This document shows, one piece after another, positions 5,854 through 32,000 of a stretch of DNA of 32,000 bases; within the stretch, counting starts at the first letter, position 1; each line of letters opens with the position of its first letter. The stretch is from contig NZ_OZ034981.1 of NCBI RefSeq assembly GCF_964030875.1, positions 180,001 through 212,000 on the forward strand, read 5' to 3'. The position numbers and the translations under genes were made by a program. Source of the stretch: Candidatus Saccharimonadota bacterium. Lineage in GTDB: Bacteria; Bacteroidota; Bacteroidia; Flavobacteriales; Blattabacteriaceae. The notes below the pieces were generated by a model that worked only from the letters and a program-made list of their open reading frames with translations, was not told the origin of the DNA and searched no databases.

Positions 5854-6474
5854 ATGATAAACATTCAAAGTACAAGTTTTATATCAAGCAGTACAAAAAA
5901 ATCTAAATTACCAGAACCTAATTTACCAGAATATGCCTTTGCAGGACGTTCAAATGTCGGAAAATCGAGCTTGATTAATATGCTAACGAATAGAAAAAGA
6001 CTTGCAAAAACATCATCATTTCCAGGAAAAACACGTTTAATTAATCATTTTTTAATCAATAATAAGTGGTATTTAGCAGATTTACCTGGTTATGGATATG
6101 CTGAGATATCTAAAAAGGAAAGAAAAAGAATACAAAAATTAATATACGATTATATAAGTTCTCGTGAAAATCTTTTCTGTTTATTTGTACTTATAGATAG
6201 TCGTTTACCGATACAGAAAAATGATCGAAACTTTTTTAAATATATTGGTGAAAAACAAATTCCATTTTGCTTAATTTTTACTAAAACAGATAAATTAAGT
6301 TTTAAAAAATGTGAAAGAAATATTTCACTATATAAGAAAACTTTATTAGAAGATTGGGAAGTAATACCCACTTTTTTTAAAAGTTCCTATAATTCAATAG
6401 AGGGAAAAATAAAAATTCTTAAATATATAGAAACTCTTAATGAACAATGGGAAACTCATATAGTAAACTCATAA
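5854..6474 (+). CDS. engB: ribosome biogenesis GTP-binding protein EngB/YsxC/YihA
   Basis: 206-aa ORF with AGRSNVGKSSLIN, DLPGYGYA and TKTDK motifs. Confidence 0.9.
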   Translation: MINIQSTSFISSSTKKSKLPEPNLPEYAFAGRSNVGKSSLINMLTNRKRLAKTSSFPGKTRLINHFLINNKWYLADLPGYGYAEISKKERKRIQKLIYDYISSRENLFCLFVLIDSRLPIQKNDRNFFKYIGEKQIPFCLIFTKTDKLSFKKCERNISLYKKTLLEDWEVIPTFFKSSYNSIEGKIKILKYIETLNEQWETHIVNS

Positions 6475-16250: not shown

Positions 16251-18119
16251 TTAACGATTAAGATAAATCAGAAGTGCACTAATATCTGCTGGAGAAACTC
16301 CACTAATTCTTGAAGCTTGTCCAATGGAACGAGGGTTCCGATAAACCAGTTTCTCTCTTGCTTCGGATGATAGAGCTCCTATGATTCCATAATCAAAATT
16401 ATCTGGAATACCAATGTTTTCAAGACGTGAAATTTTAGCGGCCATGTTCTTTTCACGTTCGATATAGCCTTTATATTTAATTTGGATAGACACTTGCTCA
16501 AGTTCTTCTTCGTTTATAGAATGCAAATTTCTATAATATTGGAAAATAGAAAGATGATAAAAGTCTTTGATGGAAATTTCTGGTCGTGAAAGTAATGAAG
16601 ATAACCGAATCGGTTGAGAAAGTAGTGTACTTCCTTTTTTTTCTAAAATTATATTTACGACATCAGGATGTAAATTTGTCTCGTAGAGAAAATTCACGCA
16701 ATCTTTTATCAATTTTAACTTTTTTTTAAGTTTTTTAATCCGATCTTCTTTAGATAATCCTAATTTATACCCTACGGGTGTAAGCCGTTCGTCGGCATTA
16801 TCTTGCCTTAGCAATATTCGATGCTCAGCCCTAGAAGTAAACATTCTATAAGGTTCTTCAGTACCTTTAGTTACTAAATCATCAATTAATACTCCTATAT
16901 AAGCTTCATGTCTATGTAAAATAAATGGTTCTTTTTTATTTATTTTTAAATGGGCATTTATCCCAGCTATAATACCTTGTGCTGCTGCTTCTTCATAACC
17001 TGTAGTTCCGTTAATTTGTCCAGCAAAGAATAAATTTTTTATCAGTTTCGTTTCGAGAGAATGATTTAATTGTATTGGTGGAAAGTAATCATATTCTATA
17101 GCATAACCTAATTTTAATATCTTTACACGTTCAAATCCAGGAATTTTTCTCAATGCTTCGCACTGAATCTCTTGAGGTAGAGAAGTAGAAAACCCATTAA
17201 CATACATTTCTGTAGTATTCCAACCTTCTGGTTCTACAAATATTTGATGATGATGACGTTCATCAAAACGATAAATTTTATCTTCAATAGAAGGACAATA
17301 ACGAGGTCCTATTCCGTGGATCGATCTATTGAATATAGGTGAACGTTTAAAACCTGAACGTAATATATCATGAACTATATCAGTGGTCTGAGTGATATAA
17401 CAACTACGTTGCTTTTTTAAAGCAGGAGTATTGATATAAGAAAAATTTTGAGGGTTTTCATCACCTATTTGTTCAGACATAGTTGAATAATCCAATGACC
17501 TTCCATCTACTCTTGGAGAAGTGCCTGTTTTCATTCGTCCGGTTAAAAAACCTAAATATCTTAGTTGTTCAGTAAGTCCTGTAGAAAATTTATCCGAGAT
17601 ACGTCCACCACGATATTGTTTTTCTCCGATATAAATCATCCCGTTAAGGAACGTCCCGCTAGCAAGTATTACTGCCCTACTTGTAATCTCTATTCCTAGT
17701 GCTGTTTTAACACCTAGGATCTTTTTTTTTTGGATCAAAAGTTCTGTGACTGAATCTTGAAGAAAGTCTACTTTTGGTAAACTCTCTAATTTGAAACGCC
17801 ATGTTTCAGAAAAACGCATACGATCTAACTGTGCTCTTGGGCTCCACATAGCAGGACCTTTTGATCGGTTAAGCATTCTGAATTGAATCATGGTTTCGTC
17901 TGTAATAATACCAGAATAACCACCTAAGGCATCTATTTCACGAATCATTTGTCCTTTAGCTATACCACCCATTGCAGGATTACAGGATAGATATCCAATG
18001 GTTTGGAGATTCATGGTAATCAAAAGAACAGAAGATCCCATTCGGGATGCTGCAGCAGATGCTTCAGCACCAGCATGGCCGCCACCTATTATAATAATAT
18101 CATAAATAGTGGAAAACAC
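16251..18119 (-). CDS. mnmG: tRNA uridine 5-carboxymethylaminomethyl modification enzyme MnmG (GidA)
   Basis: 622-aa ORF with the FAD fold YDIIIIGGGHAGAEA and a GTTGYEEAAAQG motif. It has a GTG start at 18119..18117. Confidence 0.96.
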   Translation of the reverse strand: MFSTIYDIIIIGGGHAGAEASAAASRMGSSVLLITMNLQTIGYLSCNPAMGGIAKGQMIREIDALGGYSGIITDETMIQFRMLNRSKGPAMWSPRAQLDRMRFSETWRFKLESLPKVDFLQDSVTELLIQKKKILGVKTALGIEITSRAVILASGTFLNGMIYIGEKQYRGGRISDKFSTGLTEQLRYLGFLTGRMKTGTSPRVDGRSLDYSTMSEQIGDENPQNFSYINTPALKKQRSCYITQTTDIVHDILRSGFKRSPIFNRSIHGIGPRYCPSIEDKIYRFDERHHHQIFVEPEGWNTTEMYVNGFSTSLPQEIQCEALRKIPGFERVKILKLGYAIEYDYFPPIQLNHSLETKLIKNLFFAGQINGTTGYEEAAAQGIIAGINAHLKINKKEPFILHRHEAYIGVLIDDLVTKGTEEPYRMFTSRAEHRILLRQDNADERLTPVGYKLGLSKEDRIKKLKKKLKLIKDCVNFLYETNLHPDVVNIILEKKGSTLLSQPIRLSSLLSRPEISIKDFYHLSIFQYYRNLHSINEEELEQVSIQIKYKGYIEREKNMAAKISRLENIGIPDNFDYGIIGALSSEAREKLVYRNPRSIGQASRISGVSPADISALLIYLNR

Positions 18120-18137: not shown

Positions 18138-18551
18138 CTATAAGTTGAGTAAATTTAAATAAAAGTCTTCTTTTGCATGAAGAATTAACCTCTCTTTATA
18201 CAGATTATCTTTGTAACCTAATAAATGCAGAATAGCATGTGCCATTACCCTATAAAGCTCTATATCAAAATATTGCTTCCATTTTAAAGCATTATATTTG
18301 ACTCTTTCTATACTAATGAATATATCTCCGGATATTTGTTTTTTTTTAACATAATCGAATGTAATAACATCAGTGTCAAAATCTTTATTAAGATAACTTT
18401 TATTTATTTTTAATAAATATTGATCATTGCAAAATATAAAATTTAGATTGGAAATATATGCATTTTCCTTTTGGATTATATTTTTTAACCATTTTTTTAA
18501 TTTTTTTCTATTATAAATCTTAAAATTGGTCTCATAAAAATAATGGATCAT
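18138..18551 (-). CDS. ybeY: endoribonuclease YbeY (rRNA maturation factor)
   Basis: 137-aa ORF with the metal-binding block HAILHLLGYKD. Confidence 0.88.
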   Translation of the reverse strand: MIHYFYETNFKIYNRKKLKKWLKNIIQKENAYISNLNFIFCNDQYLLKINKSYLNKDFDTDVITFDYVKKKQISGDIFISIERVKYNALKWKQYFDIELYRVMAHAILHLLGYKDNLYKERLILHAKEDFYLNLLNL

Positions 18552-18726: not shown

Positions 18727-18869
18727 CACTGCAAATTATGCTGCAGGTCAATAAAGCACTGCAAATTATGCTGCAGGTCAATAAAGCACTGCAAATTATG
18801 CTGCAGGTCAATAAAGCACTGCAAATTATGCTGCAGGTCAATAAAGCACTGCAAATTATGCTGCAGGTC
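18727..18869. repeat. tandem array, 30-bp unit x 4.8, all copies identical
   Basis: The unit is cactgcaaattatgctgcaggtcaataaag, at 18727, 18757, 18787 and 18817, plus a 23-nt partial copy at 18847..18869. It lies between ybeY and tRNA-Cys. Each unit contains a ctgcag palindrome. Confidence 0.97.
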
Positions 18870-18930
18870 TGATATTATCACCTAAAAATTGCTTAGTTTT
18901 TTTTTAGATTAACGGGAACGCTTGTTATAG

Positions 18931-19002
18931 AGGCACAGAGCGGAATCGAACCGCTATAAAAGGTTTTGCAGACCTTTGCCTAGACCATTCGGCCACAGTG
19001 CC
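18931..19002 (-). tRNA. tRNA-Cys (GCA)
   Basis: Hand-folded: GGCACTG TG GCC GAATGGTCTA GGC A AAGGT CTGCAAA ACCTT TTAT AGCGG TTCGATT CCGCT CTGTGCC T. The 3-bp D stem and U73 discriminator are typical of tRNA-Cys. There is one U6/U67 mismatch. CCA is not encoded. Confidence 0.88.
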
Positions 19003-19012
19003 TACAGTGCCT
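18995..19012. repeat. 9-bp tandem duplication (acagtgcct x2) spanning the tRNA-Cys 5' end
   Basis: The copies are at 18995..19003 and 19004..19012 and are identical. On the tRNA strand this reads AGGCACTGT AGGCACTGT GGCC, so the 5' acceptor strand is duplicated immediately upstream of +1. Confidence 0.95.
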
Positions 19013-19030
19013 GGTAAGGATAAGATAACA

Positions 19031-20047
19031 TTATATTTTCCAATGTAAATCTCCACTAAGCAGTATGTCCAGTGACATAGGATGGTTCTTCTGTGCAAGA
19101 GAAATTTGATCATGAAATAGCATGTCATAAGTAGTACGTTCTTCTTTATAAAAGACCCCAAAAGGACGAGGAAATTTTTCATCTCCTGGTGTACCAAAGA
19201 ATCTCGTTAAAATCTCTGCTTTCGGACGATCATTTTCATCATGGATCCAAATATCTGAAAAACTATAAGAACTTTCTTGTAGAGAAATTACCTTAGGATA
19301 TATACCGTCAAGACGTATGCCATATTGTTTTTCATAACCGAATATCATCAATTCCCCTTGCTTAAGAGAAAGTGTATGATTAACTTTTTTACTTTTTTCA
19401 GTAAAATTTTCAAAAACTCCATCATTAAAGACATTGCAATTTTGATATATTTCTAAAAAAGAGGTTCCTCTGTGCTCTTGTGCTCTTAGTAACATATCAC
19501 GTAAATGTTTAGGATCTCTATCCGTAGTTCTTGCTATAAAGCTAGCTCCAGCTCCTAATACCAAACTCAACGGATTGAATGGATAATCAATGGTACCTAA
19601 TGGAGAAGATTTTGTCTTAAACCCTAACCTTGAAGTTGGTGAATGTTGTCCCTTAGTTAGACCATAAATCTCATTATTAAATAACAGAATATTTACATCT
19701 AAATTCCTCCTAAGTAGATGAATCATGTGATTTCCTCCGATAGAAAGTCCATCACCATCTCCAGTAATAATCCACACATTTAAATCAGGATTTGCGAGTT
19801 TAATACCTGTAGCTATAGCTGGAGCTCGTCCATGAATACCATGAAGACCAAAAGTATCCATATAGTATGGAAAACGTGAAGAACAACCTATCCCTGAGAC
19901 AAAAACTATTTTTTCCTTAGGAAAGCCTATTTCAGGTAAAATAGTTTGGACCTGTTTTAAAATAGAGTAGTTTCCACAGCCTGGACACCATTTAATATCT
20001 TGGTCAGAAGAAAAATTTTTATGGGGATATTTTTTTATGATTTGCAC
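19031..20047 (-). CDS. korB: 2-oxoglutarate:ferredoxin oxidoreductase beta subunit
   Basis: 338-aa ORF with a GTG start. It has WCPGCGNYSIL and the TPP-binding ITGDGDGLSIGGNH motif. No korA lies adjacent on either side. Confidence 0.88.
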   Translation of the reverse strand: MQIIKKYPHKNFSSDQDIKWCPGCGNYSILKQVQTILPEIGFPKEKIVFVSGIGCSSRFPYYMDTFGLHGIHGRAPAIATGIKLANPDLNVWIITGDGDGLSIGGNHMIHLLRRNLDVNILLFNNEIYGLTKGQHSPTSRLGFKTKSSPLGTIDYPFNPLSLVLGAGASFIARTTDRDPKHLRDMLLRAQEHRGTSFLEIYQNCNVFNDGVFENFTEKSKKVNHTLSLKQGELMIFGYEKQYGIRLDGIYPKVISLQESSYSFSDIWIHDENDRPKAEILTRFFGTPGDEKFPRPFGVFYKEERTTYDMLFHDQISLAQKNHPMSLDILLSGDLHWKI

Positions 20048-20183
20048 GTTACAAGCATTATAACGAACTAGGGCTAAGTTAAGCTAAGCGCGGAGTTGCT
20101 CCAGTAAATTATGACTTATCTAGCTAGCTTGTGATTTTGATCATCACAAGATAAATACTACATTTGTAAGAGAGAATTAAGTA

Positions 20184-20257
20184 TCTTCAGTAGCTCAGTT
20201 GGTTAGAGCACCTGACTGTTAATCAGGGAGTCGCGGGTTCAAGTCCAGCCTGGAGAG
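20184..20257 (+). tRNA. tRNA-Asn (GTT)
   Basis: Hand-folded: TCTTCAG TA GCTC AGTTGGTTA GAGC A CCTGA CTGTTAA TCAGG GAGTC GCGGG TTCAAGT CCAGC CTGGAGA G. There is one G51/A63 mismatch in the T stem. CCA is not encoded. Confidence 0.88.
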
Positions 20258-20272
20258 CGATTAGTATCTGTA

Positions 20273-20347
20273 CGGGGTGTAGCTCAGTTTGGGTAGAGTG
20301 CATGCCTGGGGGGTGTGTGGTCGCTGGTTCGAATCCAGTCGCCCCGA
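20273..20347 (+). tRNA. tRNA-Pro (anticodon reads GGG)
   Basis: Hand-folded: CGGGGTG TA GCTC AGTTTGGGTA GAGT G CATGC CTGGGGG GTGTG TGGTC GCTGG TTCGAAT CCAGT CGCCCCG A. The C1-G72 pair is typical of bacterial tRNA-Pro. There are several G-U pairs. The anticodon was read from the run cctgggggg. Confidence 0.82.
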
Positions 20348-20450
20348 CTTAAGAATAGATTACATTATAAACGCTCTTTATCAAAAAGGTCGGATAAGTA
20401 TCCTCAGTACCATTGTTTTTGTCGTTTATATCAGCATGGAAAGATCTTCT

Positions 20451-23400
20451 TTAGCCTTTTTTACTAAATTTTTTAACGAATATTCTTAGAGTTTCTCCCT
20501 CAAAATCTACCATGTCTCCTAAGTTATAATCTAAGGATAGAGAGACGGAAAGAGTTTCTTCGCAAATATACTCTCTGTGTAATTTTATAACTTTTTCTAG
20601 TTCAGGAGAAGCTGCAATAGATAAAATAATTTGATCAGTTATCCCTAACTCTTTCTTTTTACGTATATTCTGTATTCTATTGATCAATTCTCTAGCTATT
20701 CCCTCATAACGTAATACGTTATCTATTTCTAGGTCGAGAACAACAGTTATCTCCTTGTCGGAGGCTATTAACCAATTTTTAGATGTCTTTATTACAATAT
20801 TCACCTCTTTTATAGTGATCTTTTCTTTAATACCTTCTATTTCTATAATAGAATGGCCATATTTTTCCATATGATCAATTTGCTGTTGAGTAAATTTTTT
20901 AAGAATATCAGAAATAATCCGTGTACGTTTACCAAATCTAGGACCTAACATCTTAAAATTAGGCTTTATTTCCCTAATAAAAAATTGACTGTAAGCTTTG
21001 TGGGTTAAAAATTTAATTTCCTTAACATTTACTTCCTGTTTAAGAATCTCGTAAAGACTAAAAATCTCTTCTTCAAAAGAAGAAACAAAAATAATTAATT
21101 TTCTAAGAGGTTGTCTAACCTTTATGTTCTTTTTTTTTCTAAAAGAGAAAACTATTGAAGTGACGCGTTGTGCCAAATGCATACATTTTTTTATCCGTTT
21201 GTCGATAATTTTTTCATAATATTTAGGAAAATAAGCCAAATGTACACTTTCAAAAAAATATTTTTTAGTTGTATATACTAAATTCATGTAAAGTTTATCA
21301 GAAAAAAAAGGTGCTATAGGAGAACTCATTATGGATATTGTAAGCAAACAATCGTATAACGTCTGATAAGCAGACACTTTATCTTTAGAATATTTTTCCT
21401 TCCAAAATCTCCGACGACAAATCCTAATGTACCAATTACTCAAATCGTCAATTACAAATTGAGAGATAATCCTAGTAGCACGAGTAGTATTATAGGTATC
21501 ATAATAAATTTCTACCTTCTTAATTAACTGGTGTAATTCTGAAAGAATCCATCTGTCCATCTCAGGACGTTCTACTATAGGAAGAAAATTTTCTTTATAA
21601 CAAAATCCATCTATATTTGCATACATTGCAAAGAATGCATAAGTATTATAAAGAGTTCCAAAAAATTTTCTACGGACTTCATCAATACCGGATATATCGA
21701 ATTTCAGATTTTCCCAAGGTTGTACCTTTGAAAGCATATACCAACGGGTCGCATCAGGACCAAACAAGTCTAATACTTCAAAAGGATTCACAGTGTTTCC
21801 CTTGCTTTTGGACATTTTATGTCCGTTTTTATCGAGTACTAAACCAATAGCCACTACATTTTTATAAGCTACTGACTTAAAAAGCATAGAAGAAATAGCA
21901 TGTAAAGTGTAAAACCATCCACGAGTCTGGTCAACCCCTTCCGCTATAAAATTAGCAGGATAAAACTTTCCTTTATCTATTTTTTCATGATTTTCAAAAG
22001 GATAATGCCATTGTGCAAATGGCATAGCTCCTGAATCAAACCACACATCAATTAAGTCAGACTCTCTATGCATTGGGGTCCCCCTAGTAGAAACTAAAAT
22101 AATATCATCCACAAATGGTTTATGCACATCAACTTTTTGGTAATTTTCATTGCTCATATCTCCAGGGACAAAATATTTTAGAGGATTTTCTTTCATGAAT
22201 CCAGCCTTAATTGATTTTTCTATTTCAAACCTCAATTCTTCAAACGATCCTATAATTCTTTCTTCTTTATGTGTCCGCCATATTGGGAGCGGAACTCCCC
22301 AATATCTTGATCGGGAAAGATTCCAATCGTTAAGGTTTTCAAGCCAGTGATTGAAACGACTAGTTCCAGTAGAAGTAGGAACCCAATGAATATTCTTATT
22401 GAGGTAAATAAGATCAGATTTAGCGGCAGTAGTTTTAATACACCAAGTATCTAAAGGATAATAAAGTATCGGTTTGTCTGTACGCCAACAATGTGGATAA
22501 TAGTGTTGATATTTCTCAATTTTAAAAACTTTTCCTTCCCTCTGCAATATGGCAGACAATTCTACGTCCACTGAAAATTCAGTAGATTTTTCCGTATTGT
22601 AGTATTCATTGCGAACATATTTTCCAGCAAATGGTTTAGGTAGACGTTGAATAAAACGTCCTTGTACATCTACCAAGGGTAGAGCTTGTTTTTTTACAGA
22701 ATCCCATACTAACATAGGAGGTATTTCATTTTTCTGAGCTACTTCAGCGTCATCAACCCCAAAAGTTGGTGCAATATGTACAATACCTGTACCGGTATCA
22801 GTAGTAACAAAATCTCCGGAAATAACTTTAAAGGCATTTTTTTTCCTTTCGTAGGGAATTACCCAAGGTAATAACTGTTCGTAACGGCTTCCTACAATAC
22901 TTTTTCCGTAAAAAGTCTTTATTATTTTATAAGGGATTTTATGATCTCCTTTTTGATCTCCTTTTTGATCTCCTTTTTGATCTCCTTTTTGATCTCCTTT
23001 TTGATCTCCTTTTTGAAATACTTCTAATGAAACGTTGGATGATACTGGAAAGTATTTATCATAAAGTATTTTACTAATCAAAACCTTGGCTAATATAACA
23101 TACATCCTTTCAAAGGAATAGGAATTAAATGTATCTATCACTAGATATTCTATATACGGACCAATAGTAAGAGCAGTATTTGAAGGAAGAGTCCAAGGGG
23201 TAGTAGTCCATGCTAAGAAATAGACATTTCTTGTTAGTACTTTTAAAAAAGTAGGAAGACTCTCTTTTATAGCTTTAAACTGTACCACAATCGTGGTATC
23301 AGTAATTTCTTTATAAGTACCAGGTAGATTAAGTTCATGTGTGCTCAATCCAGTTCCAGCAGCCGGAGAATAGGGTTGTACAGTGTATCCCTTATATAAG

Positions 23401-23918
23401 AATTTTTTTTTATAGAATTGCTTCAAAATCCACCATAGACTTTCTATATATTTTGAGTGATAAGTCATATACGGAGTTTTATGATCTATCCAATATCCTA
23501 TTTTATCAGTAAATTTTTTCCATATACTAGTGTAACGCATCACATATATAAGACAAGTCTTATTATATTCTTCTACACTAATTTTTTTACCGATATCTTC
23601 TTTTGTAATATTAAGTTCTTTTTCGACGCTAAGTTCTATGGGTAATCCATGTGCGTCCCAACCGGATTTACGGTATACTTTTTCTCCTTTTAAAGTATGA
23701 TATCTACAAAATACGTCTTTTATAGTACGAACCATTACATGGTGAATACCAGGATATCCGTTTGCTGATGGAGGGCCTTCATAAAATACATAGACATTTC
23801 TACCTTCCCGGTAGGTAATGCTTTTCTCAAAAATATTGTTTTTTTTCCAGAAATTGTCTATTTCTGAAGCCCATTGATTAAGATTAAATTTATTATATTC
23901 TTTAAATGTTTTAGACAT
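20451..23918 (-). CDS. ileS: isoleucine--tRNA ligase (long type-2 form)
   Basis: The track ORF is 20451..23933. The likely start is MSKTFKEYNKF (ATG at 23918..23916). It has HIGH-type PSANGYPGIHH and KMSKS (HKMSKSKGN) motifs. It carries an in-frame QKGD x6 repeat. Confidence 0.96.
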   Translation of the reverse strand: MSKTFKEYNKFNLNQWASEIDNFWKKNNIFEKSITYREGRNVYVFYEGPPSANGYPGIHHVMVRTIKDVFCRYHTLKGEKVYRKSGWDAHGLPIELSVEKELNITKEDIGKKISVEEYNKTCLIYVMRYTSIWKKFTDKIGYWIDHKTPYMTYHSKYIESLWWILKQFYKKKFLYKGYTVQPYSPAAGTGLSTHELNLPGTYKEITDTTIVVQFKAIKESLPTFLKVLTRNVYFLAWTTTPWTLPSNTALTIGPYIEYLVIDTFNSYSFERMYVILAKVLISKILYDKYFPVSSNVSLEVFQKGDQKGDQKGDQKGDQKGDQKGDHKIPYKIIKTFYGKSIVGSRYEQLLPWVIPYERKKNAFKVISGDFVTTDTGTGIVHIAPTFGVDDAEVAQKNEIPPMLVWDSVKKQALPLVDVQGRFIQRLPKPFAGKYVRNEYYNTEKSTEFSVDVELSAILQREGKVFKIEKYQHYYPHCWRTDKPILYYPLDTWCIKTTAAKSDLIYLNKNIHWVPTSTGTSRFNHWLENLNDWNLSRSRYWGVPLPIWRTHKEERIIGSFEELRFEIEKSIKAGFMKENPLKYFVPGDMSNENYQKVDVHKPFVDDIILVSTRGTPMHRESDLIDVWFDSGAMPFAQWHYPFENHEKIDKGKFYPANFIAEGVDQTRGWFYTLHAISSMLFKSVAYKNVVAIGLVLDKNGHKMSKSKGNTVNPFEVLDLFGPDATRWYMLSKVQPWENLKFDISGIDEVRRKFFGTLYNTYAFFAMYANIDGFCYKENFLPIVERPEMDRWILSELHQLIKKVEIYYDTYNTTRATRIISQFVIDDLSNWYIRICRRRFWKEKYSKDKVSAYQTLYDCLLTISIMSSPIAPFFSDKLYMNLVYTTKKYFFESVHLAYFPKYYEKIIDKRIKKCMHLAQRVTSIVFSFRKKKNIKVRQPLRKLIIFVSSFEEEIFSLYEILKQEVNVKEIKFLTHKAYSQFFIREIKPNFKMLGPRFGKRTRIISDILKKFTQQQIDHMEKYGHSIIEIEGIKEKITIKEVNIVIKTSKNWLIASDKEITVVLDLEIDNVLRYEGIARELINRIQNIRKKKELGITDQIILSIAASPELEKVIKLHREYICEETLSVSLSLDYNLGDMVDFEGETLRIFVKKFSKKG
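22943..23016. repeat. tandem array, 12-bp unit x 6, inside ileS coding sequence
   Basis: gatctccttttt starts at 22943, 22955, 22967, 22979, 22991 and 23003, and all copies are identical. It translates on the minus strand as QKGD x6. Confidence 0.97.
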
Positions 23919-24075
23919 AACAAAAAATCTCATTATTGAAATAATTCTATTAGGGATATTTATAATCTACCGGATTAACTATAGCTAAAACAGAATTTGA
24001 GGAGCGTAGTTGTGCAACTTTAGAGTGTTAGTGTTTATTAGCCGGACGAGCAGCTACGTTTCCACATAATACCAT

Positions 24076-24228
24076 GCTTACGGGATCCGCTAAGGTATAC
24101 GCTACGGGATCCGCTAAGGTATACGCTACGGGATCCGCTAAGGTATACGCTACGGTATCCGCTAAGGTATACGCTACGGTATCCGCTAAGGTATACGCTA
24201 CGGTATCCGCTAAGGTATACGCTAAGGT
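24076..24228. repeat. tandem array, 24-bp unit x 6.3 with two sequence variants
   Basis: Copies 1-3 are gct(t)acgggatccgctaaggtatac (24076, 24101, 24125). Copies 4-6 are gctacggtatccgctaaggtatac (24149, 24173, 24197). A tail gctaaggt follows. Each unit is two related 12-bp halves, gctacgg[g/t]atcc and gctaaggtatac. The array lies between divergent ileS and tsaB. Confidence 0.97.
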
Positions 24229-24301
24229 CTGTACAATTATTCATTTTTTAACCCGATAGCTATAGACAATCTTATCTTGCTTACTAAAAACAGGTTATTT
24301 G

Positions 24302-24943
24302 ATGGCGATTATACTTAATATAGAAACTGCAACTAGAAATTGTTCTGTATCTCTAGTTCAGAATGGCATTTTACAAATTTTAGTTGAAGAAAATTCTAAA
24401 TATTATTCGCATTCTGAAAATCTCCATAAATTTATGGATTATGTATTTAAAAAGTCTGCTATAAGTATTTATGAACTCAATGCTGTTTCTGTTAGTAAAG
24501 GTCCTGGTTCTTATACTGGTCTTAGAACAGGAGTTTCTGCGGCTAAAGGTTTGTGTTATGGTTTAAATATTCCACTAATAGCTATAGATACTTTAACGAT
24601 TATGGTACATGGGTTCAATGCTAATCAAGGAATATTGATTCCTATGATAGATTCACAAAGAAACGAGGTTTACACTGCAATTTTTAATAAAAAAAAGATG
24701 ACAACTATTGAGGCGAAAATTCTTGATGAGAACAGCTTTATAGAATATACAAAAAATCAAATTTATATATTTGGAGATGGAGCACAAAAAGCTAAAAAGT
24801 TGTTAAAAATATCTGCGTATTATTGGCCAGAATTTTTTCCATCTGCAAAATACATGAGCTCTCTTTCCGAAGAACGTTTTCAGCAACATAAATTTGAGAA
24901 TATTGAATCTGTTGAACCTTTTTATTTAAAAGATTTTTTGTAA
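24302..24943 (+). CDS. tsaB: tRNA threonylcarbamoyladenosine (t6A) biosynthesis protein TsaB (YeaZ)
   Basis: About 213 aa with ILNIETATRNCSVSL and VSKGPGSYTGLRTGVSAAKGL. The track start at 24299 is a TTG, and the ATG at 24302 is more likely. Confidence 0.85.
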   Translation: MAIILNIETATRNCSVSLVQNGILQILVEENSKYYSHSENLHKFMDYVFKKSAISIYELNAVSVSKGPGSYTGLRTGVSAAKGLCYGLNIPLIAIDTLTIMVHGFNANQGILIPMIDSQRNEVYTAIFNKKKMTTIEAKILDENSFIEYTKNQIYIFGDGAQKAKKLLKISAYYWPEFFPSAKYMSSLSEERFQQHKFENIESVEPFYLKDFL

Positions 24944-25394
24944 ATTAAAATATACTTTTATTCCATACAATTTAAGGATTCTTCTTTGTAAAAAGAGGAA
25001 TGCAAGCACAACCATGGATAACATCCAGTTTAGTTTTCATTACTTGTAAACGCACATCATGAATAGAAGCAACTTTTCAATTAATGGTGGTTCATTAACG
25101 AGGCATGAATATACGTACATCATTAGTGCCTATACCGAACGTCATTTACTAAACTTCACCGATTAGCTCAAAGATTAAGAAATGAACGTGTGAACCTATA
25201 GTATGATATCTGGAGTTCCTAAATGGGGAATTACCTCTTGTTATTTTAAGTATTGCATAGAAGGAAAAAATACACAACGTATATATTGCATTGGAGACTG
25301 TTATTCTCTGTCAAAATATTCTAGAAAACATATATAAAACATTTTATTTTTTGTACGTTATCATTTATGTCTTTTTATATTAGAAAAATTCTAT

Positions 25395-26303
25395 ATGATA
25401 ATGTCAAACAAATCTATTTTGTTCTCTACAAGAAACAGTAAAGATTTATCTAAAAAAATTTCTTCATTATATGGTGAATCATTAGGAGATATTAATTTTA
25501 TTGAGTTTGAAGACGGGGAGTATGAGCCATCGTTAGAACAATCAGTTCGGGGAATGCGTGTTTTTCTTATTGGTTCAACGGTTCCTCCGGCAGATAATTT
25601 AATGGAACTTCTCTTAATGTGCGATGCCGCTCATCGTGCATTAGCTAAGGAGATTATATTAGTAATTCCTTATTTCGGTTGGGCTCGTCAAGACCGTAAA
25701 AACAAATCTCGTTCTCCAATTGGCGCTAAACTCGTTACTAATCTTATAGAAGCCTCCGGAGCTACACGTGTAATAACTATGGATTTACATACCGATCAAA
25801 TACAGGGTTTTTTTAAAATTCCTATAGATCATTTATATGCCTATAAGATTTTTATGAAATATGTAAAATCTCTTAATTTACAAAATATTACTATAGCTTC
25901 CCCAGATATTGGTGGAGCTAATAGAATAAAAAACTATGCGAATGATTTGAATGCTGACAGGGTTATCTGTTATAAGGAAAGAACAAAGTCCAATAAGATT
26001 GATAGCATACACCTAATTGGTGAGGTTAAAGGTAGACATGTCATATTAATTGATGATATAGTAGATACGGCAGAAACTATAACTATGGCAGCTGACTTGA
26101 TAAAAGAACAAGGTGCAAATAGCGTCCGTGCTATAGCTACTCATCCAGTCCTTTCAGGGGATTCTTATGAAAGAATAATCTCTTCTTGTCTTGAAGAGTT
26201 AGTAGTTACTGATAGTCTCTCTATTAAGAGAATTTCTTCATGTAAGATAAAAGTTCTATCTAGCGCTGCTCTTTTTGCCGATGCAATATCTTATACACAA
26301 TAA
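25395..26303 (+). CDS. prs: ribose-phosphate pyrophosphokinase
   Basis: 302-aa ORF with YFGWARQDRK and the PRPP-binding loop VILIDDIVDTAETI. Confidence 0.95.
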   Translation: MIMSNKSILFSTRNSKDLSKKISSLYGESLGDINFIEFEDGEYEPSLEQSVRGMRVFLIGSTVPPADNLMELLLMCDAAHRALAKEIILVIPYFGWARQDRKNKSRSPIGAKLVTNLIEASGATRVITMDLHTDQIQGFFKIPIDHLYAYKIFMKYVKSLNLQNITIASPDIGGANRIKNYANDLNADRVICYKERTKSNKIDSIHLIGEVKGRHVILIDDIVDTAETITMAADLIKEQGANSVRAIATHPVLSGDSYERIISSCLEELVVTDSLSIKRISSCKIKVLSSAALFADAISYTQ

Positions 26304-26310
26304 ATAATCT

Positions 26311-26898
26311 ATGAAATCTATAACCATCCTAGTGGAAAAAAGAAACAACGTAGGAAAAAAATTCACTAGATCCTTACGGAAGATTGGGAAGGTTCCTTGT
26401 GTTGTGTATAGTAATGGAGAAACTTTTCATTTTTCCACTCCTCTATCCATATTAAAACATATTGTTGATACACCTGAGACATATACAGTAATCATTGAAT
26501 GGAAAGAGGGAGGAAGAATTGAAACAATTCTGAAGGATGTTCAATTACATCCTATATCCGATATTATCTTACATGCAGATTTTCTTAAACTACAAGAGAA
26601 CAAACCTATCGTTGTAGAGATCCCAGTAAAAATCATAGGAAGATCTATAGGAATAGCACAAGGTGGACAACTGTATATAACTCTTAGAAAACTTAAGATC
26701 AGAACTATTTTAAAAAATTTTCCAGATTATATAGAAATTGACATTACCTCTATAGGTATAGGTGGAAAAATATTGGTGAAAGACCTACTTACAGACAGAT
26801 ATAGTATTCAACATCCTAATGAGACGCTAATATTAGCGATAAAATCCTCACGGGAAGTAGAAAAGATTTCTAAGACTGAGAAATCAAATAATGAATGA
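26311..26898 (+). CDS. rplY: 50S ribosomal protein L25 (Ctc form)
   Basis: 195-aa ORF with an L25/Ctc N-terminal domain (GKKFTRSLRKIGKVPCVVYS). It follows prs, which is the usual order. Confidence 0.88.
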   Translation: MKSITILVEKRNNVGKKFTRSLRKIGKVPCVVYSNGETFHFSTPLSILKHIVDTPETYTVIIEWKEGGRIETILKDVQLHPISDIILHADFLKLQENKPIVVEIPVKIIGRSIGIAQGGQLYITLRKLKIRTILKNFPDYIEIDITSIGIGGKILVKDLLTDRYSIQHPNETLILAIKSSREVEKISKTEKSNNE

Positions 26899-26999
26899 GG
26901 TGCAGTAGTGGTAAGTAACTAGATTGTACGTTAACCTTGTATAATGTGTGCTGGGGGTGATACTAATGTAGCGATCCATCCTAACCTTTGTTGGTTAGG

Positions 27000-27030
27000 G
27001 AACATTCCGAATGTTCTATTTATATTTTTT
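27000..27030 (+). terminator. probable intrinsic terminator after rplY
   Basis: A hairpin gaacatt-ccg-aatgttc (27000..27016) is followed by tatttatatttttt. A second hairpin cctaacc-tttgtt-ggttagg (26980..26999) sits just upstream. Confidence 0.5.
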
Positions 27031-27074
27031 GGCTATACAAAATTCTCTGGTTTTACATTATTAAATATCTGTAT

Positions 27075-28382
27075 ATGCATCCTATTATTGCTATAGTAGG
27101 TCGTCCTAATGTCGGAAAATCTACTCTTTTCAACCGGTTTTTAGGTAGTCGTGACGCCATTATAGATTCTATTAGTGGTGTTACACGAGATAGACATTAT
27201 GGCATTTTAGAATGGAACGGCCGTCTATTTACTGTTATAGACACGGGTGGTTATATTACTGATTCTAAAAATCAAAATAAATTTTTATCCGAAATCCAAA
27301 AACAGGTCGTTATAGCTGTAAAAGAATCTGATATAGTTCTTTTTATGGTAGATGTTAAATCAGGGATTATGGACGAAGATTATCAGGTAGCTAAATTATT
27401 ACGTGAATATCAGAAACCAATTCTTTTAGTTGTTAATAAAGTAGATAGCGTTAAATATATCCCGAAGACTCTAGAGTTTTATGCTCTTGGATTCGAATGT
27501 TATTATTGTATTTCAGCTATTAGTGGTAGTGGTAGTGGTGAACTCTTAGATAAACTTGTGACTATGCTTCAAAAAAGCTATACACAGGAATCCTGTTTGG
27601 AAACACTACCAAAAATAGCTATAGTAGGACGACCTAATGTTGGAAAATCGACCTTAATGAATACCTTATTAGGAGAGGAACGTCATGTGGTTACCGATAT
27701 TTCTGGAACTACACGTGATTCTATACAAGTTCACTATTCCCGTTTTGGGATAAAATGCATATTAATAGATACTGCTGGTATTCGTCAAAAATCTAAAGTT
27801 AGAGAAACTATAGAATTTTATTCTGTAATACGAGCGATACGTGCTATAGAAAATTCTGATGTTTGTTTACTGATGATAGATGCTCAAAGAGGATATGAAG
27901 TACAGGATTTGAATATTTTTCGTTTTATTGAAAAAAATAAAAAGGGGGTAATTATTCTAGTAAATAAATGGGATATGATCGAAAAAGATCATCATACACA
28001 CTTAGTGTATGAAAAGATAATTAAAAAAAATATAAGCAATGTAAAAGAGCTGCCTATTTTATTTATTTCATCTATTACAAAACAAAGAATTTCAAAAACT
28101 CTTGAAACTGCGTTGAAAGTATATAAGAATCGTTGGAAAAAAATAAAAACCAAATGTTTAAACGAACTAATGTTACCCATCATTCATGCTACGCCCCCCT
28201 GTTCCATTCTACATGTAAATATCAAGTATTGTACTCAGTTACCTACTAATACCCCGAAATTTTATTTTTTTACTAATAAACCTAAATATATAAAAGAAAA
28301 TTATAAACGTTTTATTGAAAACAAATTAAGAAAAAAAATTGATTTTAAAGGAGTTCCTTTGACTATTTATTTTAATAAATAA
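27075..28382 (+). CDS. der: ribosome-associated GTPase Der (EngA)
   Basis: The track ORF starts at 26988, but homology begins at MHPIIAIVGRPNVGKSTLFN (ATG 27075). It has two GTPase domains (the second P-loop is GRPNVGKSTLMN) and a KH-like C-terminus. Confidence 0.95.
   Translation: MHPIIAIVGRPNVGKSTLFNRFLGSRDAIIDSISGVTRDRHYGILEWNGRLFTVIDTGGYITDSKNQNKFLSEIQKQVVIAVKESDIVLFMVDVKSGIMDEDYQVAKLLREYQKPILLVVNKVDSVKYIPKTLEFYALGFECYYCISAISGSGSGELLDKLVTMLQKSYTQESCLETLPKIAIVGRPNVGKSTLMNTLLGEERHVVTDISGTTRDSIQVHYSRFGIKCILIDTAGIRQKSKVRETIEFYSVIRAIRAIENSDVCLLMIDAQRGYEVQDLNIFRFIEKNKKGVIILVNKWDMIEKDHHTHLVYEKIIKKNISNVKELPILFISSITKQRISKTLETALKVYKNRWKKIKTKCLNELMLPIIHATPPCSILHVNIKYCTQLPTNTPKFYFFTNKPKYIKENYKRFIENKLRKKIDFKGVPLTIYFNK
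28023..28052 (+). repeat. 30-nt dispersed direct repeat, copy 1 (inside der)
   Basis: aaaaaaaatataagcaatgtaaaagagctg is identical to 28472..28501. Here it is read as KKNISNVKEL. Confidence 0.95.
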
Positions 28383-28464
28383 GTAATACGTCTTTGTGTT
28401 ACGTTGTTTAGTTAAGTTTCGATTAGTACAAAGGTTTTTAATAATGAATCCTTAAAATCATTAT

Positions 28465-29583
28465 ATGATTGAAAAAAAATATAAGCAATGTAAAAGAGCT
28501 GTTCTTATCGGTCTGATTACTACAGAACAGGGAAAAAATAAATCTAAAGAATACTTGGATGAACTTAACTTATTAGCACAAACGGCAAATATAGAGGTCT
28601 GTGCTACTTTTTTTCAAAGAGTATGTAGATCGTATCCAAAAACATTTATCGGGGATGGAAAATTGCAAGACATCGTTGTATACGTAAAAAAACAGACCAT
28701 AGATACTATCATTTTTGATGATGAACTCTCTCCGACACAACTAAAAAATATTAGAAAATATATTGAATGTACTATTATCGATCGTACACAACTCATTCTA
28801 GATATTTTTTATAATCGTGCAAAGACTTACTATGCTCGTACTCAAGTAGAAATGGCACAATATCAATATATTTTATCTCGGTTAACACGTATGTGGACTC
28901 ATTTAGAAAGACAGCGTGGTGGTATAGGATTTCGTGGTCCAGGAGAAACTGAACTAGAAACTGATAGGAGAATACTACGTGATCGTATAGGCTACCTTCG
29001 TAGAAGACTCCTTAGTATTGACACACAAATGTTTATTCAAAGAAAACATCGGAATAAATTTATTAGGGTTGCTATTATAGGATATACTAATGTTGGAAAA
29101 TCGACCTTAATGAATATTCTTAGTAAGTCTACTGTTTTCATTGAAAATAAACTTTTTGCCACAGTAGATCCTACTGTAAGAAAAACAGTAATTGGTAATA
29201 TTCCCCTTTTAATAGCCGATACAGTAGGTTTCATCCGAAAATTACCCACCCTACTTATAAAATCTTTCAAATCTACACTAGATGAAGTCAGAGAATCCGA
29301 TATTTTACTTCATGTTATAGATATTTCTCATGAGAGTTTCGAAGAACATATCCATATAGTACGAGATACCTTATATGAAATAGGAATAATTGATAAACCA
29401 GTTATAATGGTCTTTAACAAGATTGATACTGTAAATAATCTTACATTCCAAGAGTGGAAACATAATTCCTGTCTTAAATATTCTAATAAAACTGTATTTC
29501 TTTCTGCTCAGATGGGTATAGGTATTTCAGAATTGAAAAAGATGCTTTTTAATAATCTAAAAATATTGCATAATCTACGCTAG
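28465..29583 (+). CDS. hflX: GTPase HflX
   Basis: 372-aa ORF. It has the HflX N-terminal domain (WTHLERQRGGIGFRGPGETELETDRR) and the G domain motifs GYTNVGKSTLMN, DTVGF and NKID. The stop TAG (29581..29583) lies in the first unit of a 15-bp array. Confidence 0.94.
   Translation: MIEKKYKQCKRAVLIGLITTEQGKNKSKEYLDELNLLAQTANIEVCATFFQRVCRSYPKTFIGDGKLQDIVVYVKKQTIDTIIFDDELSPTQLKNIRKYIECTIIDRTQLILDIFYNRAKTYYARTQVEMAQYQYILSRLTRMWTHLERQRGGIGFRGPGETELETDRRILRDRIGYLRRRLLSIDTQMFIQRKHRNKFIRVAIIGYTNVGKSTLMNILSKSTVFIENKLFATVDPTVRKTVIGNIPLLIADTVGFIRKLPTLLIKSFKSTLDEVRESDILLHVIDISHESFEEHIHIVRDTLYEIGIIDKPVIMVFNKIDTVNNLTFQEWKHNSCLKYSNKTVFLSAQMGIGISELKKMLFNNLKILHNLR
28472..28501 (+). repeat. 30-nt dispersed direct repeat, copy 2 (codons 3-13 of hflX)
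   Basis: This is the same 30 nt as 28023..28052. Here it is read in a different frame as (E)KKYKQCKRA(V). Confidence 0.95.
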
Positions 29584-29675
29584 ATATTACTACGCTAGAT
29601 ATTACTACGCTAGATATTACTACGCTAGATATTACTACGCTAGATATTACTACGCTAGATATTACTACGCTAGAT
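29576..29675. repeat. tandem array, 15-bp unit x 6.7, starting in the last codons of hflX
   Basis: tacgctagatattac starts at 29576, 29591, 29606, 29621, 29636 and 29651, all identical, plus a 10-nt partial copy at 29666. Every unit carries a TAG in the hflX frame. Confidence 0.97.
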
Positions 29676-29696
29676 TTCTCATTAGATAAGAATTTA

Positions 29697-30460
29697 ATGT
29701 TATCTAATCGATGTTTTCACTGTAATAAAGAAGTTGTAGAAAAAATAAAAGTTTTCTGTTTTCAGGGGTGTAAAAGCGTAGACGAAATTTTACATAAATA
29801 CAGATTAATCAGTCTCCAGTAATTTCTCATCAGTAGAAAAATATTTTCTTGATACCCATCAAATTAGTCGATTTTGATCATCAGGACGATTTTTTCTTCA
29901 GATTTTTTCTGACGACAATTCATTGTATATGGCTGTTGTAAAATCTAACCAACGTGGTACAATTTCATCCTGATGAAAAGATATTATTCATTCAACAGTA
30001 GATTTTTAAATAAAATTAAGTGAATTAGCCAATACTCTCATAGTGTTGAAACTTTTTTTTGCTAACACAATGTTATTAGCTTTTCCAGAATATTTGTGGT
30101 AAGACCTTTGGCTTGAAAAAAAGCAGCATTTATTAATGTTCTTTACCGGGAATATTCTATTCAGCTACGGATTTTTTAAAAACTGCCTCTCATGCTGTTG
30201 TCCTATATAGATATTCCTTGGGCATACTATCGCTTTTTTTTAGAAGTATTGACAGGTTTTGGTTCGGGATATTTCGACAGTCTTAGTGGACTGGGATATT
30301 TCGACAGTCTTAGTGGACTGGGATATTTCGACAGTCTTAGTGGACTGGGATATTTCGACAGTCTTAGTGGACTGGGATTTTTCATGTTGCTAGGACGTGT
30401 TTTTAAGATGATAACTTATCGTTATCTAGCTTTTGACAGAGATTATAAATCATTTAAGAA
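29697..30460 (+). pseudogene. ccoI: cbb3-oxidase-associated heavy-metal P-type ATPase (CcoI/FixI-like), N-terminal remnant only
   Basis: The ATG at 29697 gives MLSNRCFHCNKEVVEKIKVFCFQGCKSVDEILHKY...*, the CxxC ... FCxxGC N-terminus of this ATPase family. Later frame-shifted pieces are ANTMLLAFPEYLW* and ..GYFDSLSGL..FFMLLGRVFKMITYRYLAFDRDYKSF. The whole ATPase core (phosphorylation and nucleotide-binding domains) is absent. Confidence 0.75.
30266..30378. repeat. tandem array, 27-bp unit x 4.2, inside the ccoI remnant
   Basis: gggatatttcgacagtcttagtggact starts at 30266, 30293, 30320 and 30347, all identical, followed by gggat. It encodes GYFDSLSGL x4. Confidence 0.97.
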
Positions 30461-30464
30461 TTCT

Positions 30465-32000
30465 TTCGGTATGTTAGGTTATGGACGTTGGAGAATGCTT
30501 CATACTAATACCGTTGTTTTTGCTTTTGTAGTAAATATAATTTTTACAGGCTCTTACTATTCTTTACAACGTTTATTGAAAACAAGAATGTTCAGCGATG
30601 GATCAATTTTTATGGATGGCAACTTCTGATTGTACTCACCTGGATTACTTATCTACTGGGAATAAATACCAGTAAAGAATACGCTGAACACGAATGGCCA
30701 ATAGACATACTAATTGCTATAGTATGGTGTATTTACTACGGAAATATTATTGGTACACTCTTAAGAAGAAGAGTACAACATCTGTCTGTTTCAATATGGT
30801 TTTTCCTGGGTAGCTGTTCTCGTATTGCACATTTATTGCGATTCCTATAGCTCTTAACTCACTTAATAGCTATTCTATTTATGCCGTAGTGGTCCAATGG
30901 TGGTATGGTCCAATGGTGGTATGGGCACAATGCTGTGGCTTTTATTTTGACCACACCGATACTTGGGTTGATATCCCTAGGTAAAGCCTGTTTTCTCTTA
31001 TAAATTATCTATTATTCATTTTTGGTCACTAATTTTCGTTTATATCTGGGCAGGTCCTCATCATTTAATGTATACCTCTCTTACCGGTTGGGCACAGATG
31101 CTCAATGGTATAAAGTAAGAGAGAATCCAATCCGAAAATTTTTATCAGTGACCTGCTATGGAATGGCTACTTTCGAAGGTCCCATGCTGGCTACTAAGAC
31201 ATTAAATTCCATCGTACATTTTCCCGACTGGATAATTTCACATGTAGGAACTTTGGTATGGAACGTCTTTATGGCATTTGGAGTTATCTATTGGCTAGTT
31301 AAGCGATTATATTCTCCAACATTAGCGAATATCCATTTCTGTATGGTAACTATTGGGATAATTTTTTATGTCATTCCGCTTTATTGTGGAGCTGTTATAC
31401 AAGCTTCGATGTGGAAAGAATTCAATCCGTACGGAACACTTGTGCACAAAAATTTTCTTGATACTGTAACAGCTATAGTTCCTTTTTACAAACTTCGGTT
31501 GATAGGTGGTATACTGTATTTTACAGGAGTTGTCATAATATTTATCCGAATCGTCCGATTTATCGCAAATGAACCTGCATAAGCTGTTTCTTTAAGAGAT
31601 AATTTCAACAACATAAACTTTAAAAATCATCCCTGGATCCCTAACAAAAACCAATTAAGTTTACTATATTATCTATCATTGTAGTATCTATTGGAAGCAT
31701 AGTAGAAATCATCCCTACGTTAATAATTTAGATCTACAATATCAAGTGTTAAACCTTATAGTCCTCTAGAATTATAGGGGAGAGATCTTTATATCCGTGA
31801 AGGTTGTATCACAGACCATTCATAGATGAAGTAGTACGTTATGGTGAATATTCTAAAGCAGGTGAGTTTGTTTCTTTGGGGTTACAAACGTACAGGTCCC
31901 GATTTAGTAGATCCCAGTTCTTGGCATTTAAAACATATGTCTAACCCTAGATCTACTTATCCTGGATCTATTATGCCGAGATATCCTGGGTTGATATCCT
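30465..32000 (+). pseudogene. ccoN: cbb3-type cytochrome c oxidase subunit CcoNO (fused N+O form), disrupted; continues past window end
   Basis: CcoN-like pieces lie in several frames: GRWRMLHTNTVVFAFVVNIIFTGSYYSLQRLLKTRMFS, KEYAEHEWPIDILIAIVW, AVVVQWWYG(16-bp duplication)[35 protein letters not shown] and FPDWIISHVGTLVW (the histidine block is damaged). CcoO-like pieces follow after 31600: VKPYSPLEL.GRDLYIREGC..., RYGEYSKAGEF, KRTGPDL and SWHLKHM.NP. The heme CxxCH reads EGCITDHS*. The N-terminus is missing. Confidence 0.85.
30891..30922. repeat. 16-bp tandem duplication (ggtccaatggtggtat x2) inside ccoN remnant
   Basis: The copies are at 30891..30906 and 30907..30922 and are identical. Deleting one copy restores the conserved CcoN peptide AVVVQWWYGHNAVAFILTTP. 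Confidence 0.95.

Follow-up and report, generated by a model that had tools for sequence, protein, structure and literature searches.

What produces a dense series of near-perfect tandem arrays in 12 kb of a small symbiont genome, and why is every multi-copy unit there a multiple of three nucleotides long? This question is raised by a stretch of 32,000 nucleotides (positions 180,001 to 212,000 of contig NZ_OZ034981.1; hereafter, the window), which is DNA of the flavobacterium Candidatus Walczuchella that lives as a symbiont in the scale insect Icerya purchasi; HflX, MnmG, KorB, L25, TsaB, Der and Prs are exact matches to I. purchasi Walczuchella proteins on NCBI (National Center for Biotechnology Information) contigs. 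We propose, with a probability of roughly 0.8, that the arrays are neutral or nearly neutral variable-number tandem repeats (VNTRs) which arose by RecA-independent replication slippage in the repair-poor Walczuchella, selection filtering out the damaging products. The idea that unit lengths are constrained to multiples of three is, judged by the sequences of relatives, refuted.

Arrays were detected with Tandem Repeats Finder (TRF), with 100 dinucleotide-preserving shuffles of the window as control. The window contains:

18727-18869: 30 bp x 4.8, 100% matches, in the spacer between ybeY and tRNA-Cys
18995-19012: 9 bp x 2, straddling the 5' end of tRNA-Cys
22938-23016, minus strand: 12 bp x 6.6, 98% matches, in frame within the intact ileS
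24079-24224: 24 bp x 6.1, 99% matches, with a 12-bp sub-period to 24228, in the divergent ileS/tsaB spacer
27521-27539: 6 bp x 3.2 (AGTGGT), in der
29575-29675: 15 bp x 6.7, 100% matches, starting 6 bp before the hflX stop codon
30266-30383, plus strand: 27 bp x 4.4, 98% matches, in a dead ccoI remnant
30890-30924: 16 bp x 2.2, in a ccoN remnant; the sole event of the window whose unit is not a multiple of three

All arrays listed in an earlier reading of this DNA, made from the letters alone (the sequence-only reading), were recovered with trivial differences in coordinates and copy numbers, and every multi-copy unit is indeed divisible by three (3n), as had been counted there. The five multi-copy arrays had TRF scores of 151-286 while the maximum among the shuffles was 75, and seven rows scored at least 60 (70-286) in the real window compared to a mean of 0.08 in the shuffles; a chance origin of the arrays is excluded. 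Array copies are strictly adjacent, their spacing being the unit length, and the 24-bp array consists of two diverged 12-mers in three GGGATCC copies followed by three GGTATCC copies one base apart, in agreement with the first description. The AGTGGT run in der, which had been taken for a recent expansion, varies little or not at all among the seven Walczuchella genomes and is old coding sequence (SGSGSG). Six of the seven recent events of the window are located in spacers, a tRNA leader or pseudogenes, and the relatives are alike in this respect.

For comparison, the syntenic 20-22 kb of six other Walczuchella genomes and independent Logan contigs were used. The genomes are:

ICSE: host I. 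seychellarum, loci L088 and L091
CRMU: host Crypticerya multicicatrices, loci L089 and L093
CRGE: host C. genistae, loci L086 and L092
DRPI: host Drosicha pinicola, loci L082 and L094
DRCO: host D. corpulenta, locus L083
LLAX: host Llaveia axin, locus L081

Over 13 kb, the substitution divergence from the window is 1.1% for CRGE and CRMU, 1.8% for ICSE and ~5% for the Drosicha symbionts and LLAX. Gene order is identical in all fetched Walczuchella loci, and PMC12188211 describes the genomes as completely syntenic. Exact look-ups of TsaB, L25 and the 145-amino-acid open reading frame of the window matched no contig, and a genome-collection scan yielded only free-living Flavobacteriales, at no more than 61% identity.

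The relatives carry the units as native sequence, mostly in other copy numbers. The 30-bp unit is present in 5.8 copies at the same site of ICSE, each with the same C-to-A difference, the tract is single in CRGE, and CRMU carries a different, 21-bp x 2 duplication of it. The 9-bp duplication is private to the window genome and leaves tRNA-Cys intact; at the same junction CRGE has a 13-bp x 8 array (L086 2818-2921) that overlaps the first 2 nt of tRNA-Cys, which was likewise detected as intact. The 12-bp array of ileS, also private to the window genome, adds five GDQK units (+20 amino acids) where only one QKGD is found in each of nine other Walczuchella IleRS sequences; in relatives, the native DNA is a single TTTTATGATCTCC followed by TTTTTGA, an imperfect repeat one unit apart. 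The array falls within IleRS residues 295-328, a non-conserved stretch without alignment to the solved IleRS structure 8c8w, and the window ileS product, with either start codon, was unmatched in the protein collection and is not in the Walczuchella IleRS cluster. At the site of the 24-bp array, ICSE has 12 bp x 2.6 and the Crypticerya symbionts a single copy in which GGTCT recurs 12 bp apart; the array apparently grew from a 12-bp duplication that is still visible in ICSE. The 15-bp unit, which repeats the hflX stop codon TAG in every copy, is present 6.7 times in the window, 11.7 times in ICSE, 4.7 times in CRMU and once in CRGE, Drosicha and LLAX.

The symbionts of the Icerya and Crypticerya hosts, four in number, have in common a 1.8-kb deletion that fuses the ccoI remnant to the ccoN remnant. 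LLAX, whose ccoI is intact, has the 27-bp sequence once, with 10-nt imperfect direct repeats (GGGATATTTC and GGTATTTTTC) 27 bp apart. In the four genomes with the deletion the array has 4.3-4.4 copies, and each lineage shows substitutions of its own throughout the copies; if the unit core is written Y and the two variants of the flanking repeat X and Z, the structure is (XY)4Z in the window, X(YZ)4 in Crypticerya and (ZY)4Z in ICSE. A variant search revealed no close variant of the 145-amino-acid open reading frame (ORF) across this array. The 16-bp duplication is private to the window genome and postdates the gene-killing deletion; it had been read as a frameshift in a dead gene, but since it arose after the death of ccoN it did not inactivate the gene.

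Within a genome the copies of an array are uniform, yet between genomes some arrays differ by substitutions that all their copies carry, which indicates rapid turnover. DRPI and DRCO differ by 0.3-0.6% substitutions, yet DRPI has three more TGGGGT copies (18 bp), and the two also differ by a ~200-bp duplication containing a 33-bp array. Furthermore, each lineage has arrays of its own: 13 x 8, 22 x 3, 26 x 5.3, 25 x 5.2 and 23 x 4.3 in CRGE; 13 x 8.1 (der/hflX spacer), 18 x 2.4, 31 x 2, 26 x 5 and 25 x 2.1 in ICSE; 21 x 2 and a 28-bp array interrupted by an assembly gap in CRMU; and, in frame in hflX of LLAX, 21 bp x 4.1, which is single-copy elsewhere. These copy-number differences and lineage-specific substitutions bear out the view that the arrays are recent and still turning over. 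Some of the private arrays touch gene ends: the 22-bp x 3 array of CRGE (L086 4173-4239) duplicates the first 22 nt of tRNA-Pro, which was detected as intact, and the perfect 25-bp x 2.1 duplication of ICSE (L091 21539-21590; ~window 6437-6474) is located where the convergent genes aroQ and engB overlap with their 3' ends, shortening both products (142 vs 148 and 199 vs 206 amino acids), and is a non-3n duplication tolerated at gene ends.

A slippage model, with template misalignment independent of RecA, would account for these patterns as follows. A first duplication would form, in many cases between short direct repeats with a spacing of one unit in the native sequence; as soon as two perfect copies were present, further slippage would add or remove copies fast, and this fast gain and loss would keep the copies identical within a genome while the arrays diverge between lineages. 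Selection would discard only products that damage a gene or a tRNA, so that any unit length could persist in spacers, tRNA leaders and dead genes, whereas intact genes would keep in-frame arrays in tolerant loops only. Clear unit-spaced direct repeats are found in the unexpanded DNA of the 12-bp array (7/8 nt), the 27-bp array (8-9/10 nt) and the 12/24-bp array (5 nt), weak ones (3 nt) at the 15-bp and 16-bp cases, and none at the 9-bp case or the 13-bp x 8 array of CRGE. The border microhomologies quoted for the 12-bp and 27-bp arrays in the sequence-only reading are present, and its proposal of slipped-strand amplification of native sequence is supported by units that are single at the orthologous sites of relatives. 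It had also suspected a loss of repair or recombination functions, in line with Choi et al. (2025, PMC12188211), according to whom the repair genes of Walczuchella have dwindled to mutS alone, found in three of seven genomes, dnaB and dnaG are absent from all of them and a dnaE/dnaQ function is retained. No repair gene is encoded within the window. Hairpins as promoters of slippage were considered and rejected: three tandem units folded as DNA had no excess structure over shuffled sequences (mean z -0.12, 20 units).

The arrays are confined to one part of the window, whose genes and remnants are:

16251-18119, minus strand: mnmG
18138-18551, minus strand: ybeY
18930-19002, minus strand: tRNA-Cys
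19031-20047, minus strand: korB
20184-20348, plus strand: tRNA-Asn and tRNA-Pro
20451-23918, minus strand: ileS
24302-24943, plus strand: tsaB
25401-26303, plus strand: prs
26311-26898, plus strand: rplY
27075-28382, plus strand: der
28465-29583, plus strand: hflX
after hflX: remnants of a decayed cbb3 oxidase cluster (ccoI, ccoN)
30192-30629: the 145-amino-acid repeat ORF

Since the first 18.7 kb of the window are without a comparable array, the clustering is real. It follows largely, perhaps not wholly, from the location of spacer and pseudogene DNA. From ybeY to the cco remnants each genome has 4-8 arrays; across four relatives, the equivalent of window 6-16 kb (L091-L094 above 11869) has one recent array, despite two 1-kb pseudogene spacers.

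Several observations speak against slippage in a tolerant, repair-poor genome as the complete explanation. In the window and four relatives, the array density per noncoding kb is ~10 times higher from ybeY to cco than in the two upstream 1-kb pseudogene spacers, a difference that tolerance alone does not fully explain. Border microhomology is slight or absent at some arrays, among them the 9-bp duplication and the 13-bp x 8 array of CRGE. Although homogenised independently in four lineages, the 27-bp array has 4.3-4.4 copies in each of them; this constancy is odd for free turnover and could reflect an assembly limit. The identity of the genomes that retain mutS is not stated in the available text of PMC12188211. 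Besides, we infer both the slippage mechanism and its causal tie to the lost repair genes from sequence patterns only.

According to one other explanation, which we consider very unlikely, short-read assembly and polishing created the arrays or falsified their copy numbers. The published genomes were made with Illumina, SPAdes and Pilon, and uneven depth at 'repetitive sequences' is reported for them; no array in any genome is longer than 176 bp; the three I. purchasi symbiont assemblies differ in length (288,943, 288,648 and 286,606 bp); and the CRMU assembly has a run of Ns inside its 28-bp array (L089 ~14451-14809), with 3.7 and 4.7 copies on either side. However, host species that were sequenced independently have these arrays at orthologous sites, with substitutions specific to the species, and independent Logan contigs (k=31) break off precisely at the arrays, which is what repeats present in the reads would produce; therefore, the existence of the arrays is secure. 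Further, the 288,648-bp NCBI contig encodes an identical 145-amino-acid ORF with four full 27-bp copies, and reads longer than an array span it completely. For the longest window arrays (143 and 146 bp) the copy numbers may be too low, and the run of Ns in CRMU means that at least one array is too long for short reads. A comparison of array lengths with de Bruijn collapse at k=99 or k=127 gave expected ranges too wide to discriminate. Short-read assemblies of Walczuchella genomes are least reliable at array sites.

A second explanation, which would have been the surprising part, addresses the unit lengths: selection, or a mechanism coupled to translation, would limit expansions to 3n even in nominally intergenic DNA that was recently coding or is still translated. 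In the window all five multi-copy arrays and the 9-bp duplication are 3n, and some reading frames stay open through arrays. This idea does not survive the comparison with relatives. Ten perfect arrays in their noncoding sites, which are spacers, tRNA leaders and dead genes the same as or equivalent to those of the window, have non-3n units (13, 13, 22, 23, 25, 25, 26, 26, 28 and 31 bp), units of 23, 25, 26, 28 and 31 bp being located in cco gene remnants and the 22-bp x 3 array at tRNA-Pro. When the window arrays and their orthologues were left out as the source of the hypothesis, 6/16 noncoding arrays were 3n (binomial P=0.45), as were 3/11 among those with at least three copies; pooling with the window gives 11/22 (P=0.08). 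Noncoding indels in a four-genome alignment of the close genomes (13.4-13.9 kb) are likewise unbiased, with 32/96 (33%) of those of at least 4 bp and 39/128 of any length being 3n. The few indels within intact genes are 3n, except for length changes at the extreme 3' end of ileS, and both multi-copy arrays in intact genes (ileS in the window, hflX in LLAX) keep the frame, as expected under purifying selection. With a stop codon in the 15-bp unit, and with the 27-bp unit in a gene already dead through the common 1.8-kb deletion, neither bears on a frame constraint. The chance of (1/3)^5 given in the sequence-only reading was a post hoc calculation that counts two arrays in coding or formerly coding sequence, and its two proposed causes, selection at 'intergenic' sites and coupling to coding sequence, fall with the non-3n arrays of the relatives. 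We regard a 3n rule as extremely improbable; the all-3n pattern of the window is a small-sample coincidence plus selection inside intact genes.

It is just as hard to believe that the arrays are functional repeats, that is contingency loci, protein-binding iterons or regulatory spacers that tune their neighbours. One array occupies a divergent promoter spacer (24079-24228), two abut the 5' ends of tRNAs and one alters the IleRS protein. The units are also richer in G+C (mean 43.5%) than the background (33%), a mean reached by 0/20,000 resamples (window and loci L081-L094). Such a bias would make sense if misaligned pairing has to be stable in an AT-rich genome. Against function, the units share no common sequence, each derives from local native DNA, most arrays are lineage-specific, many are in dead genes and those in intact genes do not switch the frame. 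The Bacteroidota -7 promoter motif TAnnTTTG is not enriched (37 matches in the window vs 46 expected) and has no match within the arrays, and the array of the ileS/tsaB spacer lies upstream of the nearest promoter-like sequence. A contingency locus was rejected as neither frame nor promoter spacing is shifted by copy change. Mobile elements, CRISPR (clustered regularly interspaced short palindromic repeats) and iterons were dismissed because each unit is native to its site, the copies are strictly adjacent and different units are unrelated, and a TACGCTA 7-mer shared by the 24-bp and 15-bp units was set aside, two independent loci being too few for meaning.

VNTRs or minisatellites, as used in multiple-locus VNTR analysis of Mycobacterium tuberculosis and known from Wolbachia, arise by slipped-strand mispairing and consist of ~10-100-bp, head-to-tail, near-identical units whose copies vary between close strains; there are few such loci per megabase, in repair-proficient genomes. 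The Walczuchella arrays resemble them in their near-identical head-to-tail units, strain-variable copies and in-frame units inside genes, but differ in that six arrays lie in 12 kb of a 289-kb genome and every host lineage has new arrays of its own. Contingency loci of Haemophilus, Neisseria and Mycoplasma have units of 1-8 bp, and a change in copy number switches a gene on or off. Slippage-driven copy change in or near genes is common to both, whereas the coding arrays of Walczuchella never change the frame and most of its arrays are in dead DNA. The nearest known case is Portiera, from Bemisia tabaci (Sloan and Moran 2013, PMC3673631), like Walczuchella an ancient obligate insect symbiont with a tiny genome and tandem repeats concentrated in intergenic DNA. 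In Portiera, short tandem repeats proliferated alongside the loss of replication and repair genes, and the genome shows a peak of 7-bp microsatellites, expanded intergenic regions, numerous inversions and large structural variants mediated by repeats (PMC3673631). Unlike Portiera, Walczuchella has units of 6-33 bp, mostly 12-33 bp, preserves synteny without frequent rearrangement, carries arrays also in pseudogenes and, in frame, in intact genes, and has kept dnaE/dnaQ function but lost dnaB and dnaG. Ancient insect symbionts are usually called structurally frozen; the arrays make Walczuchella a second lineage after Portiera in which loss of replication and repair genes coincides with repeat instability. 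They are mentioned in neither Walczuchella genome paper, the word 'tandem' being absent from the available text of PMC12188211 and 'repeats' from that of PMC3971599. Moreover, they offer ready hypervariable markers with which populations of the host, a major citrus pest, can be followed.

Two side observations concern hflX. In Drosicha the gene is a pseudogene (L082 12290-13400) broken by deletions of 1, 6, 6, 10 and 10 bp, several of which are bounded by 3-4-nt direct repeats; to judge from these borders, the deletions are consistent with the process that made the arrays. This suggests that slippage, through frameshifting duplications and microhomology deletions, contributes, beyond point mutations to stop codons, to the acceleration of gene decay that is reported in the genus. 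Moreover, a perfect 30-nt repeat is present 449 bp apart, at 28023-28052 in der and at 28472-28501, which are codons 3-12 of hflX, in different frames. At this patch, the der genes of LLAX and Drosicha carry unrelated sequence of roughly equal length, so that hflX sequence overwrote part of der in the ancestor of the Icerya and Crypticerya symbionts; in CRMU both copies have the same A-to-C variant. This pattern points to copying of short patches between der and hflX, in a genome that lacks recA. It is possible, albeit doubtful, that Walczuchella has a distinctive template-switching signature, made up of arrays with units of mostly 12-33 bp that arise afresh in each host lineage, microhomology deletions and short-patch copying as in the 30-nt patch of der and hflX, which would be a consequence of the lost DnaB, DnaG and repair functions, a main driver of the unusually fast pseudogenisation of the genus and a source of insertions to offset the deletion bias.

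Finally, the C-terminus of IleRS is variable among ten Walczuchella sequences, which end in KKLAC, KKLADE or KKLADKERKKG, the window sequence ending in KKFSKKG (ileS 3' end, 20451-20470); this variation points to recurrent small indels just 5' of the stop codon.

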